A stretch of DNA of 64,000 nt. It comes from Escherichia coli. GTDB lineage: Bacteria; Pseudomonadota; Gammaproteobacteria; Enterobacterales; Enterobacteriaceae. The stretch lies in the NCBI RefSeq assembly GCF_013315695.1, contig NZ_CP054353.1. One strand, 5' to 3'. Positions 1,089 to 28,061 of the stretch are shown piece after piece. The position numbers and the translations under genes are program-made. Positions within the stretch are counted from its first letter, which is position 1. Every line of letters begins with the position of its first letter. The notes below the pieces were generated by a model that searched no databases, was not told the origin of the DNA, and saw only the letters and a program-made list of their open reading frames with translations.

Positions 1089-2268
1089 ATGTTTACTAAA
1101 CGTCACCGCATCACATTACTGTTCAATGCCAATAAAGCCTATGACCGGCAGGTAGTAGAAGGCGTAGGGGGAATATTTACAGGCGTCACAATCGGAATGG
1201 GATATTTTCATTGAAGAAGATTTCCGCGCCCGCATTGATAAAATCAAGGACTGGTTAGGAGATGGCGTCATTGCCGACTTCGACAACAAACAAATCGAGC
1301 AAGCGCTAGCTGATGTCGACGTCCCCATTGTTGGGGTTGGTGGCTCGTATCACCTTGCCGAAAGTTACCCACCCGTTCATTACATTGCCACCGATAACTA
1401 TGCGCTGGTTGAAAGCGCGTTTTTGCATTTAAAAGAGAAAGGCGTTAACCGCTTTGCTTTTTATGGTCTTCCGGAATCAAGCGGTAAACGTTGGGCCACT
1501 GAACGCGAATATGCATTTCGTCAGCTTGTCGCCGAAGAAAAGTATCGCGGAGTGGTTTATCAGGGATTAGAAACCGCGCCAGAGAACTGGCAACACGCGC
1601 AAAATCGGCTGGCAGACTGGCTACAAACGCTGCCACCGCAAACCGGGATTATTGCCGTTACTGACGCCCGGGCGCGGCATATTCTGCAAGTATGTGAACA
1701 TCTACACATTCCCGTACCGGAAAAATTATGCGTGATTGGCATCGATAACGAAGAACTGACCCGCTATCTGTCGCGTGTCGCCCTTTCTTCGGTCGCTCAG
1801 GGCGCGCGGCAAATGGGCTATCAGGCGGCAAAACTGTTGCATCGATTATTAGATAAAGAAGAAATGCCGCTACAGCGGATTTTGGTCCCACCAGTTCGCG
1901 TCATTGAACGGCGCTCAACAGATTACCGCTCGCTGACCGATCCCGCCGTTATTCAGGCCATGCATTACATTCGTAATCACGCCTGTAAAGGGATTAAAGT
2001 GGATCAGGTACTGGATGCGGTGGGCATATCACGCTCCAATCTTGAGAAGCGTTTTAAAGAAGAGGTGGGTGAAACCATCCATGCCATGATTCATGCCGAG
2101 AAGCTGGAGAAAGCGCGCAGTCTGCTGATTTCAACCACCTTGTCGATCAATGAGATATCGCAAATGTGCGGTTATCCATCGCTGCAATATTTCTACTCTG
2201 TTTTTAAAAAAGCATATGACACGACGCCAAAAGAGTATCGCGATGTAAATAGCGAGGTCATGTTGTAG
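1089..2268 (+). pseudogene. xylR: xylose operon regulator XylR (AraC family), disrupted by +1 frameshift in a G5 run at 1167-1171
   Basis: ATG at 1089 opens MFTKRHRITLLFNANKAYDRQVVEGVG then stops at 1212-1214; the rest of the XylR-like sequence continues in the +1 frame to the stop at 2268; total span is 1180 bp, one more than a whole number of codons. Confidence 0.7.
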
Positions 2269-7594: not shown

Positions 7595-8443
7595 TTATGT
7601 GATCGCGCCCTGGTCGTCCCTGACAGTAAATCCCAGTTCATTAGAAATAGCCTGCGCGGTTTCACGCAGTGGTTTCAGGAGATTTTTCTCCCCCACCTGT
7701 TTCAGACGTGATGTCGAAAGCGAAATCGACACGGCGTACGGCACCCGCCCATGAATATCAAACACCGGAACAGCAATACAGGAGACGCCGAGTTCGTTTT
7801 CTTCTCTGTCCATCGCCGCTCCGCTTTCACGAATGTGCGCCAGTTCGTCGAACATCGCGGGCAGCTCGGTAATGGTATTGTGGGTTAACGGCTGGATCTC
7901 ATGCTGATGGCTTTCCCAGTATGACTTCACGTAGTCCGGGTGACCAAACGCCATGTAGATCTTGCCCATTGCGGAACAGTAGAGCGGCATATGCTGGCCA
8001 ATATAGGCACGGGTTCGCAGCATCCCGGTTGTGGGTTCCAGCTTATAAATCAAAATAGCGTGATCGTCTTCGCGGCTGGAGAAGTTAATAGTTTCACCAG
8101 TGGCGATGTTCAGTGCCTCAAGATGCGGAGCGGCGATATGAATGATATTCAGCGAAGACAGCGCCTTCTGCCCGACGGCAATAAATTTGGTGGTCAGGCG
8201 GTAACTCCCTGCGGCGGGCGCGGTGGTCACATAGCCGCAGGACTGTAATCCCTGCAATAAGCGATGGACGGTACTCTTATTTAAACCAGCCAGTTCCGAA
8301 AGATGCGCCAACGGACAACCGTTTGGATAGTTGCTCAAAATCTCAATCAGCATCAACCCGCGAAACAGACTCTGGCTTCCGGCTGGACGCTCTTTTTCCT
8401 GCGCCATCTCGTTCTCTTTTTTTCCCATCACTTCTTTCCCCAT
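7595..8443 (-). CDS. yiaJ: IclR-family transcriptional repressor YiaJ (PlaR) of the yiaK-S operon
   Basis: 282 aa; N-terminal HTH and IclR effector domain; divergent from yiaK. Confidence 0.85.
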   Translation of the reverse strand: MGKEVMGKKENEMAQEKERPAGSQSLFRGLMLIEILSNYPNGCPLAHLSELAGLNKSTVHRLLQGLQSCGYVTTAPAAGSYRLTTKFIAVGQKALSSLNIIHIAAPHLEALNIATGETINFSSREDDHAILIYKLEPTTGMLRTRAYIGQHMPLYCSAMGKIYMAFGHPDYVKSYWESHQHEIQPLTHNTITELPAMFDELAHIRESGAAMDREENELGVSCIAVPVFDIHGRVPYAVSISLSTSRLKQVGEKNLLKPLRETAQAISNELGFTVRDDQGAIT

Positions 8444-16723: not shown

Positions 16724-17539
16724 CTACGAATTGATATGTTCCTTGCTGTAACGCCGCTTCCACGCTGCTGGCGTTAAACCAGTGTGTTTGCGAAAAATCT
16801 GCCGGAAATAGCCAACGTCATTAAACCCGCACAACGCCGCCACTTCAGTGAGCGATCGCGCTTCGCTAATTAACAGCTTTTCGGCTTCGCGCACTCGCTG
16901 GCGATGAATTGCTTCTGTTAACGTCAGATGAAACACCCGCCGATAGACGCGCCCAAGATAATCGGCATTGCAGTACAGCTCGCGGGCTAAAAGCGCCGTG
17001 GAAAGCGGGCGGTGATATTGCGTGCGAATCAGTTTCTGTGCTTTCCAGGCAAGGGTGGTGCCTGCACCATCGGCCTGTTCATCAAGACGCGCGTCACGGG
17101 TGAGCTGCTGCAAAATCAGCAGCACAATAAACTCCAGCGCCGGAGTGCGTTGATGCTTTTCCTGTTCGCTTAAGAACTGGCGAAACAAGGCCACCAGCAC
17201 CTGCGGATCGGCAACCTTAGTTTGTTGCGGCACGCTAAGATGAGTGAGCCAGCGCGGATCGTTGTCCGGCGCTTTAACCTCAAAATGCAGCCAGTAAAAT
17301 TTGAGATCGGCGGGAAAATCCTCCACCCCAACATGCTGTCGGTTCGGCCAGAGTAATAAACTCTCTCCCGCATCGACCAGAAATATCCGCTCTTCTTCCT
17401 GAATCGCTAATCGACCTTTTTCGACAAAGATAATTTCCCATGACTCCAGCCGCCTTGCCGGATGCCTCCCTACGCCACGGGAAATAAATAATCCACCATT
17501 TTGCACTTTAATCGGTAACGTCATGGATAATTCGAGCAT
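16724..17539 (-). CDS. AraC/XylS-family transcriptional regulator (accessory sugar-utilisation cassette)
   Basis: 271 aa; N-terminal cupin-like sensor and C-terminal AraC HTH; divergent from the transporter gene. Confidence 0.8.
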   Translation of the reverse strand: MLELSMTLPIKVQNGGLFISRGVGRHPARRLESWEIIFVEKGRLAIQEEERIFLVDAGESLLLWPNRQHVGVEDFPADLKFYWLHFEVKAPDNDPRWLTHLSVPQQTKVADPQVLVALFRQFLSEQEKHQRTPALEFIVLLILQQLTRDARLDEQADGAGTTLAWKAQKLIRTQYHRPLSTALLARELYCNADYLGRVYRRVFHLTLTEAIHRQRVREAEKLLISEARSLTEVAALCGFNDVGYFRQIFRKHTGLTPAAWKRRYSKEHINS

Positions 17540-17587
17540 TGATATGTAATTTCCCGCTTATTCATTAATGATTAAACACATTACCTT

Positions 17588-17602
17588 TTGATTATTAATC
17601 AA
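17588..17602. promoter_or_regulatory. 7-1-7 inverted repeat TTGATTA-t-TAATCAA in the divergent AraC/transporter promoter region (candidate operator)
   Basis: Inverted repeat read directly in the 225-bp intergenic region. Confidence 0.3.
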
Positions 17603-17764
17603 AAACATTAATTTCACCTGATCCAATTCACACTTTTAAATTCAGGTCGGAATCGTCACCTTTTTTTACTCTTTTCTCGCCTTGTTGATATTCCCGTTCA
17701 CGGCAGAATTAATCATGTCATTGCAATAAAACTAAAAATTGCTCCCTATTCACGAGGAATATCT

Positions 17765-19165
17765 ATGACCTCTACACCGATTACTACCGCTGATATCGCT
17801 AAAGGTAAAATTGACGATGCGTTATCTGTACGGGAAAAAATAGGCTACGGCCTGGGTGACGCAGGCGGCACCGTAATAACTTGCCTGATCATGAACTTTC
17901 TCACCTTTTTCTACACCGACGTTTTTGGCTTAACTCCGGCGCTGGTCGGCACGCTGTTTATTGCACTGCGCGTGTTTGATGCCATCTCCGACCCGGTGAT
18001 GGGCGTCATTGCCGACCGGACGCAAAGTCGCTGGGGGCGCTTTCGTCCGTGGCAGTTATGGATTGCCATTCCCATCGGCATTATCGGCATCCTGACGTTC
18101 ACCGTGCCAGATGCCAGCATGGGAGTAAAAATCGCCTGGGCGTTCGGTACTTACCTGCTCCTTTCAGTCGGTTATACCGCCATCAACGTACCGTACTGCG
18201 CGCTGATCAACACCATGACCACCCGCCACAATGAAGTGATCTCCTGCCAGTCCTGGCGATTCGTTCTCTGCGGCGTAGCGGGATTTCTGGTTTCGGTAGG
18301 CTTACCGTGGATGGTAGATCTCTTCGGGCAGGGTAATGCCGCGCGCGGCTATCAACTGGGCGTCGGCGTATTGTGCGCCATTGCCGTGGTGATGTTCCTG
18401 TGCTGTTTCTTCTGGGTTCGTGAACGGGTGCCGCTCTCCACAATGGGGAAATTTACCCTGCGCGAACATCTTGCCGGGCTGCGGAACAACGACCAACTGC
18501 TGCTGATGCTGGTCATGTCTTTCCTGCTGATTAACGTCTTTAATATTCGCGGCGGTGGGTATATGTACTTCATTACCTACGTCTTACAAGGCAGTACGGG
18601 CTACACGTCGCTGTTCTTCACCATGGTCACCTTCGCCTCCATTATCGGCTCGGTGATTGTCAGCCCATTAACGCGGCGTTTCGATACCGTCAAAATTTAT
18701 TACTACACCAACCTGCTCCTCGCTTCACTGGCGGTGTTGATGTGGTTCCTGCCCTCCGGCCCGGCTTATCAAACGCTGTGGCTGGCGGTGATCCTCGGTA
18801 ATGGCGTGATTCTTGGCTTCACATTGCCACTGCACTTCTCATTGATGGCCTTTGCCGATGACTACGGCGAGTGGAAAACCCGCGTACGTTCTTCCGGCAT
18901 GAACTTCGCCTTCAATCTGTTTTTCATCAAGCTGGCCTGGGCCTCCAGCGCCGGGATCATCAGCCTGCTGTTTATTTTTGTCGCCTACCAGCCAGGCGTG
19001 GAAAACCAGACCACCAGTTCGCTTGGCGGGATCGCGGCGATGGAAACATTGCTGCCTGCGCTGTTCCACCTGCTGCTGGCGATGGCGATCCGCTTTTGCA
19101 AACTCAATAACCCTATGATGTCACGCATTGCTAGCGACCTGCGTCAGCGTCATGTACAGCCTTAA
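17765..19165 (+). CDS. glycoside-pentoside-hexuronide (GPH) family cation symporter, MelB-like
   Basis: 466-aa 12-TM-type protein with N-terminal GYGLGD motif typical of GPH transporters. Confidence 0.8.
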
Positions 19166-19175
19166 GGAGCACAAG

Positions 19176-21155
19176 ATGAACATTTCGGAAGTCGATCTGC
19201 ATAAACTGACGGTCAGCGATCCGTTCCTCGGTCAGTACCAACAACTGGTCCGCGATGTGGTGATTCCTTATCAGTGGGACGCCTTGAACGATCGTATCCC
19301 AGAAGCGGAACCCAGCCATGCGATTGAAAACTTTCGCATTGCCGCAGGACTGCAAGACGGTGAATTTTACGGGATGGTGTTTCAGGACAGCGACGTCGCC
19401 AAATGGCTGGAAGCGGTAGCCTGGTCGCTGTGCCAGAAGCCGGACGCCGAACTGGAAAAAACCGCCGACGAGGTGATTGAACTGATCGCTTCCGCCCAGT
19501 GCGAAGATGGCTATCTCAATACTTACTTTACGGTAAAAGCGCCCGAAGAACGCTGGAGCAATCTGGCGGAGTGTCATGAACTTTACTGCGCCGGTCATCT
19601 GATTGAAGCCGGAGTCGCCTTCTTCCAGGCTACGGGCAAGCGGCGCTTGCTGGAAGTAGTTTGCCGTCTGACCGATCATATCGACAGCGTATTTGGTCCA
19701 GATGAAAGTAAGTTACACGGTTATCCTGGTCACCCGGAAATTGAACTGGCACTAATGCGCCTGTATGAAGTGACCGAAGAGCCGCGCTACCTGGCGTTGA
19801 CGAACTATTTTGTCGAACAGCGTGGTGCGCAACCGCACTATTACGACCAGGAATATGAAAAGCGCGGGCAGACCTCGCACTGGCACACCTACGGCCCGGC
19901 GTGGATGGTGAAAGATAAAGCCTACAGCCAGGCGCATTTGCCCATCGCACAGCAACAAACCGCCATCGGACATGCAGTACGCTTTGTATATCTGATGACT
20001 GGCGTCGCACATCTGGCGCGTTTAAGTCACGATGAAAGCAAGCGTCAGGATTGCCTGCGGCTGTGGAACAATATGGCCCAGCGTCAGTTATATATTACCG
20101 GCGGCATTGGCTCACAAAGCAGCGGCGAAGCGTTCAGCAGCGATTACGATCTGCCGAATGACACGGTTTACGCCGAAAGCTGTGCTTCCATCGGCCTGAT
20201 GATGTTCGCCCGGCGAATGCTGGAAATGGAAGGCGACAGTCAATATGCCGATGTGATGGAGCGCGCACTGTACAACACCGTGCTCGGCGGCATGGCGCTG
20301 GATGGCAAACATTTCTTCTATGTGAATCCGCTGGAAGTACATCCAAAATCGCTGAAATTCAACCATATCTACGATCACGTTAAGCCGATCCGCCAGCGTT
20401 GGTTTGGTTGCGCTTGTTGTCCGCCAAATATCGCCCGCGTGCTAACCTCGATTGGTCATTATCTCTACACGCCGCGTGAAGATGCGTTGTATATCAACAT
20501 CTACGCAGGAAACAGCATGGAAGTGCCGGTAGAAAATGGCACGTTGCGTCTGCGGGTTAGCGGAAACTATCCGTGGCAGGAACAGGTGACAATTGCGGTT
20601 GAATCGCCCCAGCCGGTGCGTCATACGCTGGCTTTACGTCTGCCGGACTGGTGCACACAGCCGCAGATCATATTGAATGGGGAAGAGGTCGAGCAGGATA
20701 TTCGTAAAGGGTATTTGCACATTACCCGCGAATGGCAGGAGGGCGACACGCTGAATCTAACTTTGCCAATGCCAGTACGTCGCGTTTACGGTAACCCGCT
20801 GGTGCGTCACGTCGCCGGAAAAGTGGCGATTCAGCGCGGCCCGCTGGTTTATTGCCTGGAACAGGCCGACAACGGCGAGTCACTGCATAACCTGTGGCTG
20901 CCCGCCGATGCGCCATTTACGACATTTGAAGGTAATGGATTGTTCCGCCATAAGATCTTAATCCAGGCACCGGGTTACCGGTATGAACAGAGCAATCCAG
21001 AGCAGCAACCGCTGTGGCATTACGACAGTGCGCCAGCCAAACGCCAGCCGCAAACTCTGACGTTTATCCCGTGGTTTAGCTGGGCTAACCGGGGTGAAGG
21101 CGAAATGCGGATCTGGGTGAATGAGGAAAAGCATTGCCATCCGGAGGTTGGATAA
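19176..21155 (+). CDS. glycoside hydrolase family 127 (DUF1680) protein, beta-L-arabinofuranosidase-like
   Basis: 659 aa from ATG at 19176 preceded by AAGGAG; contains the GCACCPPN cysteine-rich motif of GH127 enzymes; the six-frame ORF starts 48 bp earlier. Confidence 0.8.
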   Translation: MNISEVDLHKLTVSDPFLGQYQQLVRDVVIPYQWDALNDRIPEAEPSHAIENFRIAAGLQDGEFYGMVFQDSDVAKWLEAVAWSLCQKPDAELEKTADEVIELIASAQCEDGYLNTYFTVKAPEERWSNLAECHELYCAGHLIEAGVAFFQATGKRRLLEVVCRLTDHIDSVFGPDESKLHGYPGHPEIELALMRLYEVTEEPRYLALTNYFVEQRGAQPHYYDQEYEKRGQTSHWHTYGPAWMVKDKAYSQAHLPIAQQQTAIGHAVRFVYLMTGVAHLARLSHDESKRQDCLRLWNNMAQRQLYITGGIGSQSSGEAFSSDYDLPNDTVYAESCASIGLMMFARRMLEMEGDSQYADVMERALYNTVLGGMALDGKHFFYVNPLEVHPKSLKFNHIYDHVKPIRQRWFGCACCPPNIARVLTSIGHYLYTPREDALYINIYAGNSMEVPVENGTLRLRVSGNYPWQEQVTIAVESPQPVRHTLALRLPDWCTQPQIILNGEEVEQDIRKGYLHITREWQEGDTLNLTLPMPVRRVYGNPLVRHVAGKVAIQRGPLVYCLEQADNGESLHNLWLPADAPFTTFEGNGLFRHKILIQAPGYRYEQSNPEQQPLWHYDSAPAKRQPQTLTFIPWFSWANRGEGEMRIWVNEEKHCHPEVG

Positions 21156-26765: not shown

Positions 26766-28061
26766 TTACAGCGGATAATGCGCGAAGTACACGGCTTGCT
26801 GGTCATTAATTTTCTTCTCTTGCGCAAACCCTTCTTTAACAATTGTCCGTAAATCAGCTCGAGCCGTATTATCAGAGACGCCCAGGCTCGCGCTAATTTC
26901 AGCAACTGTGTACTCTTTCCCCGGATTGGCGAGCATCACATTCAGGAGCGTTACCTGGCGCGGATTCAGGCGTTTAAGCACACCAGAGCTAAACAGCACA
27001 CTATCGAGTTTTGCGCTTCGTTGTGTAATTTCATCGATATGCTGCTGCCAGTTTTGCAGAGCACGTTTAATGACACCCGCCTGATATTCAAGGAAATAAG
27101 TCAGATCCATACCATCTGATTCAGTGTACTGGTAGCTGGCGGCATATTTGACCGGTGCAGCATGAAGCAAACGGCTGATGGAAATATATTTAAAGACATC
27201 GTAGCCCGATTTCAGCATATACCAGTAAAACAGCGCCCGACTGGTGCGCCCGTTGCCATCCCGAAACGGATGTTCATGGGCCAGCATAAAATGCAGAATG
27301 CAGGCACGGACCAACGGATGAATATACCCTTCATGGCTGTTTAACCACTGGCAAACTTTTTCCAGCCGTTCCGGTAACAATGCCGCAGCGGGCGGTTGAT
27401 GCACTATATTGCCATCATAGTCGGCGATCACAACATCATCTGTTTCACGAAATTCTCCCGGACGATATTTCGCGTCATTGATTCCACCCATACCAATGGC
27501 ATGTAACTGGCGAATAAGCGCAGGTGTCAGCGGTTCTGCGAGTAAGTGCGGAATTTCCGCCATCAGCCGGGCATTTCCCGCAATCATATGCTCGTCTTCA
27601 GTGCGTGGCGACCGCCCTGTTTCCAGCATTTTTCTCGCCACCAGCGTTGTAGTATTCGCACCTTCCAGCTGGGAGCTGGTGATCGGCTCTTCCAGGCGTA
27701 ACTGGCTTAACTCGGCTCCGGCCCCGCGTAACCGTTCAGTCTGATCTTTCAGCGCCAGCGCGGTAGCACGTTTGTCGACAAGCTCGCACGCTTCTGCAAT
27801 CACCGGGGTAATGTTGAATCCGGCCTGTTCACCCGCTTCATTGCAATAATTAATTCGTTGGATCGCCGCGTTGCGCGCCAGACGGGTAAGCGTCCACGCC
27901 ACATCGACGTTTTCTCCTTTTTTGATGCGGTACTGCAACTCATCAAAAGGCAGATAACGTCCTTTTTCATCGGTAACCCGGTTAAAGCGCAGGTGGGCCA
28001 GGAGTTCCTCACCCGATAAGTGTGATAAAGGAATAAGTCCGGGAGGTGATTTGATAGCCAT
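26766..28061 (-). CDS. Fic (AMPylase-type) family protein with N-terminal inhibitory motif and C-terminal winged-helix domain
   Basis: 431 aa; Fic active-site motif [15 protein letters not shown]-terminal SSQLEG matching the (S/T)xxxE(G/N) inhibitory-helix pattern; C-terminal HTH-like segment ([28 protein letters not shown]). Confidence 0.8.

Follow-up and report, generated by a model that had tools for sequence, protein, structure and literature searches.

In this analysis of 64,000 nt of Escherichia coli DNA (the window, by which we mean the whole stretch), we found that xylR, the gene of the xylose activator, carries a fifth G in a run that holds four G in the closest relatives, so that the reading frame is lost after 27 codons. 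From comparisons at the level of sequence, we infer that the fifth G is truly present in the DNA and that the strain would be xylose-negative, and we put the probability that the extra base is a real xylR null allele with this consequence at roughly 0.6. This reading is favoured because the extra G is the only indel that separates the window from its nearest genomes, because the xylose locus is already decaying in these relatives, because the same allele recurs in clean sequence of an unrelated background and because xylR has been lost repeatedly in the species. The earlier note on this DNA had offered two explanations, an inactivated activator or a homopolymer sequencing error, and these stay the only serious ones. 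As such, the lesion is of an ordinary and well-understood kind in a thoroughly characterised gene and is already explained under either of them.

The interrupted xylR reading frame

The xylR pseudogene as a whole occupies positions 1089 to 2268 (+ strand) and measures 1180 nt, i.e. 3n+1, against 1179 nt for the intact gene. The earlier note had described a frame that opens at the ATG at 1089, closes early and continues in the +1 frame after a G run, and its coordinates were confirmed throughout. The sole open reading frame that can be reached from the native start (1089 to 1214, + strand) has 41 codons, MFTKRHRITLLFNANKAYDRQVVEGVGGIFTGVTIGMGYFH, and is composed of 27 native codons, MFTKRHRITLLFNANKAYDRQVVEGVG, followed by 14 out-of-frame codons, GIFTGVTIGMGYFH, up to the TGA at 1212-1214. 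The frame switches in the GGGGG run at 1167-1171 (+ strand), at codons Gly27/Glu28, where all other complete genomes have GGGG. The remainder of the gene (1171 to 2268, + strand; residues 28-392 plus the stop) lies in the +1 frame, reads EYLQASQSEWDIF... from the GAA at 1171 and is free of stops until the TAG at 2266-2268, with no start codon near its beginning. Alignment with the closest genome places a one-base gap in the run, GGGG versus GGGGG, and no second difference was seen in the 151 nt aligned around it. The check that had been suggested, an alignment with xylR of related strains, gave the same answer, with the relatives carrying GGGG and the window GGGGG.

The first ATG, GTG or TTG in the XylR frame past the shift is the TTG at 1423, corresponding to residue 112, and the downstream part can therefore not be translated from near its beginning. 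This TTG opens the longest residual ORF in the XylR frame (1423 to 2268, + strand), which would encode 281 aa covering residues 112-392, and no Shine-Dalgarno-like sequence was found upstream of it. A second change lies close by, namely a synonymous A-to-G substitution at 1419 (+ strand; GCA to GCG, Ala110), which is private to the window and missing from all other sequences examined. We considered whether this substitution creates a start or ribosome-binding site for the 281-aa ORF and rejected the idea, given that it yields no new ATG, GTG or TTG and no Shine-Dalgarno sequence. In the small hairpin at 1400-1420, which precedes a T run, it only replaces T-A pairing by T-G.

The identity of the gene as xylR, likewise named in the earlier note, was confirmed. 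Deletion of one G restores a 392-aa product that is identical to PDB 4FE4/4FE7 at 391 of 392 positions over its full length (alignment of residues 1-392 with 4FE4, E=3.7e-266), and such a full-length match is not what a chance ORF pattern would give. The sole difference is D66N, due to an A for G at 1285 (+ strand), which is also present in MSB1_4I, one of the two nearest genomes, and in a 392-aa protein (P0008) encoded on 87 contigs, and is thus an inherited polymorphism. The repaired protein contains the sugar-binding domain PF22177 PBP1_XylR at residues 7-104 (E=6.7e-47), PF13377 at residues 113-277 (E=9.2e-39), and the AraC-type helix-turn-helix, matched by PF12833 and PF00165, at residues 309-384. 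In the window no single uninterrupted ORF encodes both XylR domains, as the native frame holds only 41 codons before its stop. Their product has a Pfam match to positions 1-24 only of the 98-position profile of the XylR N-terminal domain. In E. coli XylR, residues 1-274 serve xylose binding and dimerisation and residues 285-389 bind DNA (PMC3561964). Given this domain map and the 27 native residues that are left, the 41-codon product is predicted to keep neither domain, while in the 281-aa residual ORF the first 111 residues of the sugar-binding and dimerisation domain are missing. Loss of XylR abolishes the consumption of D-xylose, as seen in a xylR null strain (PMC8647362). The locus is hence best described as a XylR-family pseudogene, or as an intact member of the family if the fifth G is erroneous.

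The gene order along the window is xylH(3' part)-xylR-bax-malS-avtA-yia...-mtl-lld-...-rfaD/F. The window begins within xylH, the permease gene of the xylose ABC transporter, of which the 3' part (1 to 1011, + strand; stop codon at 1009-1011) forms an ORF that runs off the left window end and is identical to xylH of AF3, the other nearest genome, and of MSB1_4I (WP_000045978.1). With its start at 1089, xylR holds the orthologous position downstream of xylFGH, and the xylH/xylR order is that of AF3, MSB1_4I, MS 21-1 and UMNK88. A consensus scan revealed a terminator-like hairpin between the two genes (1028 to 1059, + strand; a 14-pair stem followed by TTTTT), a strong predicted structure that would reduce the transcription reaching xylR from the xylF promoter. 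The same kind of scan found no sigma-70-like promoter in 950-2450, a result that is uninformative for a weak promoter such as the one that xylR has of its own. Further along the window, positions 16724-21155 between araD/sgbE and yiaT hold a putative accessory sugar-utilisation cassette, not known to occur in K-12, that encodes a regulator of the AraC family, an MFS transporter and a family 127 glycoside hydrolase. Between aldB and yiaY there is a gene for a Fic-family protein (26766-28061, - strand; annotation transferred from AF3), which looks like a lineage-variable insertion.

Mutation or sequencing error at the G run

The five-G allele is exceedingly rare. When complete RefSeq E. coli genomes were probed with 81 nt spanning the run, all 5,408 full-length matches were 98.8% identical, a value that reflects the one gap, and none had the fifth G. 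Exact-pattern scans did not find the five-G pattern in species-representative genomes, and in metagenome contigs recovered it from a single noisy contig (L011) only. The private substitution is equally isolated, as no match to the window at 1419 was found among about 5,409 complete genomes and every fetched locus that holds the site has an A. The related GenBank chromosome CP164702.1 (L031) carries four G at the run, and the MalS allele of the lineage is present in 1,254 collection blocks. As a separate observation, one nucleotide is deleted close to the 5' end of yiaJ in CP164702.1, at the equivalent of window position 8417, and the yiaJ product is called at 270 aa, the AF3 yiaJ CDS being 849 nt or 282 aa by coordinates; the deletion could be a true frameshift or an error left in the consensus of that batch of assemblies.

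Rarity of this degree also suits the other serious explanation, which is that the fifth G is a long-read basecalling or polishing error and that the strain has GGGG and an intact 392-codon xylR. We regard this as possible but somewhat unlikely. In its favour, seven recorded contigs encode exactly the same 41-aa frameshift peptide; six of them (L006-L011) are noisy and one (L012) is clean. In the noisy assemblies, which come from at least two projects, all neighbouring genes are shattered, with 23-39 gap openings per ~4.7-7.8 kb relative to the window, and their shared indels at C4, C5, G5 and T5 runs and at CCTGG (Dcm) sites are the signature of an uncorrected long-read consensus. These six indel-riddled assemblies carry the identical G4-to-G5 change and span several lineages, which argues that the change is in their case a systematic miscall and not shared ancestry. 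On this sequence pattern, the xylR G4 run is a systematic miscall site for long reads. In addition, the source assembly of the window must contain such reads. The window is free of N and extends across a multi-copy IS1A and an array of 255-bp repeats, which points to a long-read, hybrid or finished assembly, and one residual error per 64 kb fits the range of polished long-read assemblies.

Against an error stands the accuracy of the window in every other respect. It aligns end to end with AF3 (NZ_OZ547117.1) and MSB1_4I (NZ_LR898874.1) at 99.98% identity, and across its 64,000 bp no indel other than the extra G separates it from these two near-identical genomes. All 215 other homopolymers of at least 5 nt agree with both (153 of 5 nt, 46 of 6, 14 of 7 and 2 of 8, so that 62 have at least 6 nt). 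Length-dependent homopolymer error is expected in long runs first, whereas the insertion struck a 4-mer while 215 longer runs stayed untouched. Furthermore, sites that are systematically wrong in the noisy assemblies, at 315, 876, 2707, 3208, 3241, 3867 and 5741, are correct in the window. The window has the G4-to-G5 call in common with L006-L011, but is without every other hallmark of these assemblies and their homopolymer and Dcm-site errors, having no further indel in 64 kb.

The remaining private differences of the window from AF3 and MSB1_4I support the same view. Besides the extra G and the A-to-G change at 1419, they comprise 11 substitutions at 43690-44292 within a YadA-like adhesin gene (42025-47025, + strand) that contains the 255-bp repeat array. 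All 11 match the base of the preceding repeat unit, which suggests that one or two adhesin repeat units were homogenised by a gene-conversion-like process. A reading of these differences as a sign of poor assembly was rejected, since the exact 1666-aa adhesin protein recurs in independent assemblies, namely in CP164447.1, a sister genome that differs from the window at 47187, and in a contig assembled by SPAdes from short reads (ENA ERZ1741957). The variant is thus no assembly fault but a genuine polymorphism, in a trimeric autotransporter adhesin that is rich in repeats, and its confirmation elsewhere indicates that the assembly is accurate even in a difficult repeat region. Directly upstream of the adhesin gene, the IS1A (40872-41569) truncates the 5' end of a gene for a lipoprotein of the SadB/YajI family (41589-41981), as it does in AF3 and MSB1_4I, while the ERZ1741957 contig has a 227-aa ORF and no IS1 at the lipoprotein site; the IS1A might alter expression of the adhesin.

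Outside the adhesin repeats, the only two private changes of the window both fall in xylR, 252 bp apart, in a gene that makes up 1.8% of the window. We considered the change at 1419 as a systematic long-read miscall and rejected this, as all noisy assemblies have A at the site. The neighbouring substitution is therefore no recurrent miscall, which speaks against error at the locus. That both changes fall close together in xylR may be due to chance but is not explained by systematic miscalling.

The identical five-G allele is present in a clean contig of another lineage. L012, the Logan assembly of SRR24416294, has the same G4-to-G5 change and the same split into 41 and 281 aa, together with intact xylB, xylA, xylF, xylG and xylH. 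Its background is UMNK88-like and lies 51 SNPs per 2.3 kb away from the window; in 11,254 bp compared with UMNK88, its only differences are the extra G and a single substitution in xylG, T138I. The latter (L012 position 7635, xylG codon 138) is private, and both differences of L012 from UMNK88 hence fall in xyl genes. A third lineage is represented by L032 (Logan ERR4014541), a clean contig with a single gap in 8.1 kb, in which an additional A immediately precedes the run. L033, from a long-read run in the same resource, is far noisier, its 12 gaps within 3.2 kb lying at homopolymers and Dcm sites, and this contrast with L012 and L032 argues that these two derive from accurate reads. Judged from these contigs, the G4 run of xylR is a site of real mutation as well as of miscalling. 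Given this dual nature, a xylR frameshift call at the run should be neither accepted nor rejected without read-level evidence.

Probable stepwise loss of the xylose pathway

The nearest genomes provide the lineage context. In both of them, xylG is split by ISEc45 (AF3, L004 14874-18473; MSB1_4I, L001 55-1833), and AF3 xylG has an additional IS1A, while xylA, xylB and xylF are intact in both. The slightly more distant AF14, AF10 and MS 21-1 have an intact xylFGH-xylR. The insertion in xylG of AF3 and MSB1_4I indicates that decay of the xyl locus had set in earlier in this sub-clade, to which the window is tied by a marker at 674 that it shares with both genomes. The window starts inside xylH, and by parsimony its strain probably carries xylG::ISEc45 as well. 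In that case the high-affinity transporter would have been lost before the frameshift, which takes away the activator of what was left of the pathway.

Based on these observations, we propose that, in an E. coli strain from an F-like lineage, slippage by +1 at codons 27-28 of xylR converted GGGG to GGGGG. Ribosomes that start at the native ATG would then terminate after 41 codons, with no usable downstream start before residue 112, and without XylR the promoters of xylAB and xylFGH would not be activated, so that the strain would neither grow on nor ferment D-xylose. As xylG is already split in the nearest genomes, the frameshift is probably a later step, after xylG::ISEc45, in the stepwise decay of a pathway that the sub-clade does not need.

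Damage to xylR has indeed taken many forms. A wider sample, defined as contigs that encode the 281-aa C-terminal ORF, contained insertions of IS4 and IS3, a 71-bp deletion, a 707-bp internal duplication, premature stops and a deletion in a T run. A GLASS analysis of 60,472 E. coli genomes found xylR to be enriched for predicted deleterious polymorphisms, alongside rhaR, rhaS, rbsR, chbR and malT (PMC10401003). If the fifth G is real, the isolate is predicted to be xylose-negative and would represent one more case of stepwise and convergent decay of a sugar locus in E. coli, with an IS in xylG followed by a frameshift in the activator. Such a result would be of use for strain typing, the curation of metabolic models and pseudogene annotation, and it would leave existing knowledge unchanged.

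Leakiness, reversion and comparison with known systems

A real five-G allele need not be a complete null, and we considered that ribosomes might slip by +1 on GGG-G or that G5 might frequently revert to G4 and act as an on/off switch. In the sequence that carries the candidate slip site, GUAGGGGGAAUA, the codons read GUA GGG GGA AUA, and a peptidyl-tRNA-Gly that slips by +1 would re-pair perfectly with GGG and leave GAA as the next codon, by which ...VEGVG-EYLQ..., the exact wild-type protein, would be restored. The zero-frame codon in the A site, GGA, is a rarer glycine codon, and prfB as well as frameshift suppression at GGGG runs offer precedents. The insertion also creates AGGGGG, a Shine-Dalgarno-like hexamer, and three independent frameshift alleles cluster at the run. 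A broader form of this idea holds that the GTAGGGGAA run (xylR codons 26-28) is a recurrent hotspot that switches xylose catabolism off and partly back on, in which case the gene would not be dead and the five-G allele would mark a state that is leaky or can be reversed; we consider this highly improbable.

Several features speak against both forms. The shift site is not conserved, as essentially all of about 5,408 genomes have G4 and the five-G configuration was found in none of these complete genomes and in no species representative, which excludes a conserved programmed frameshift. GGG-G permits re-pairing, but it is not followed by a stop or hungry codon placed as in prfB, and while the Shine-Dalgarno-like element of prfB precedes its slip site by 3 nt, the AGGGGG of the window overlaps the slip site. 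Spontaneous +1 slippage typically reaches at most 1%. Phase-variable tracts usually have at least 7 nt, with a length that varies between and within strains, whereas the tract in xylR has 5 nt, far fewer than known examples, and its length is constant between strains, with G4 in essentially all genomes and isolated frameshift alleles only. An incomplete or switching allele therefore seems very unlikely.

The lesion has clear counterparts among the xyl pseudogenes of Shigella and other E. coli, in which the capacity to use D-xylose was lost at the same locus by small lesions or IS elements, convergently across lineages. Thus xylR is truncated or xylH frameshifted in S. flexneri 6 (PMC8767353), xylFGH-xylR is deleted in S. 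sonnei (PMC12795559), and BL21(DE3) has a frameshift in xylG, c.1094delC (PMC11870883). Different from these, the lesion of the window is a +1 G at codons 27-28 that occurs in no complete E. coli genome, and its host, unlike Shigella, belongs to an ordinary extra-intestinal or commensal-type E. coli lineage. The GLASS study (PMC10401003), which is statistical, includes neither this allele nor a phenotype for it. With the XylR of E. coli K-12 (PDB 4FE4/4FE7; Ni et al. 2013, PMC3561964), the gene of the window shares the architecture of a PBP-like N-terminal domain followed by an AraC-type helix-turn-helix as well as the xylH-xylR-bax-malS synteny, and it departs from K-12 in the frame broken at codon 28, in D66N and in the private synonymous change at 1419.
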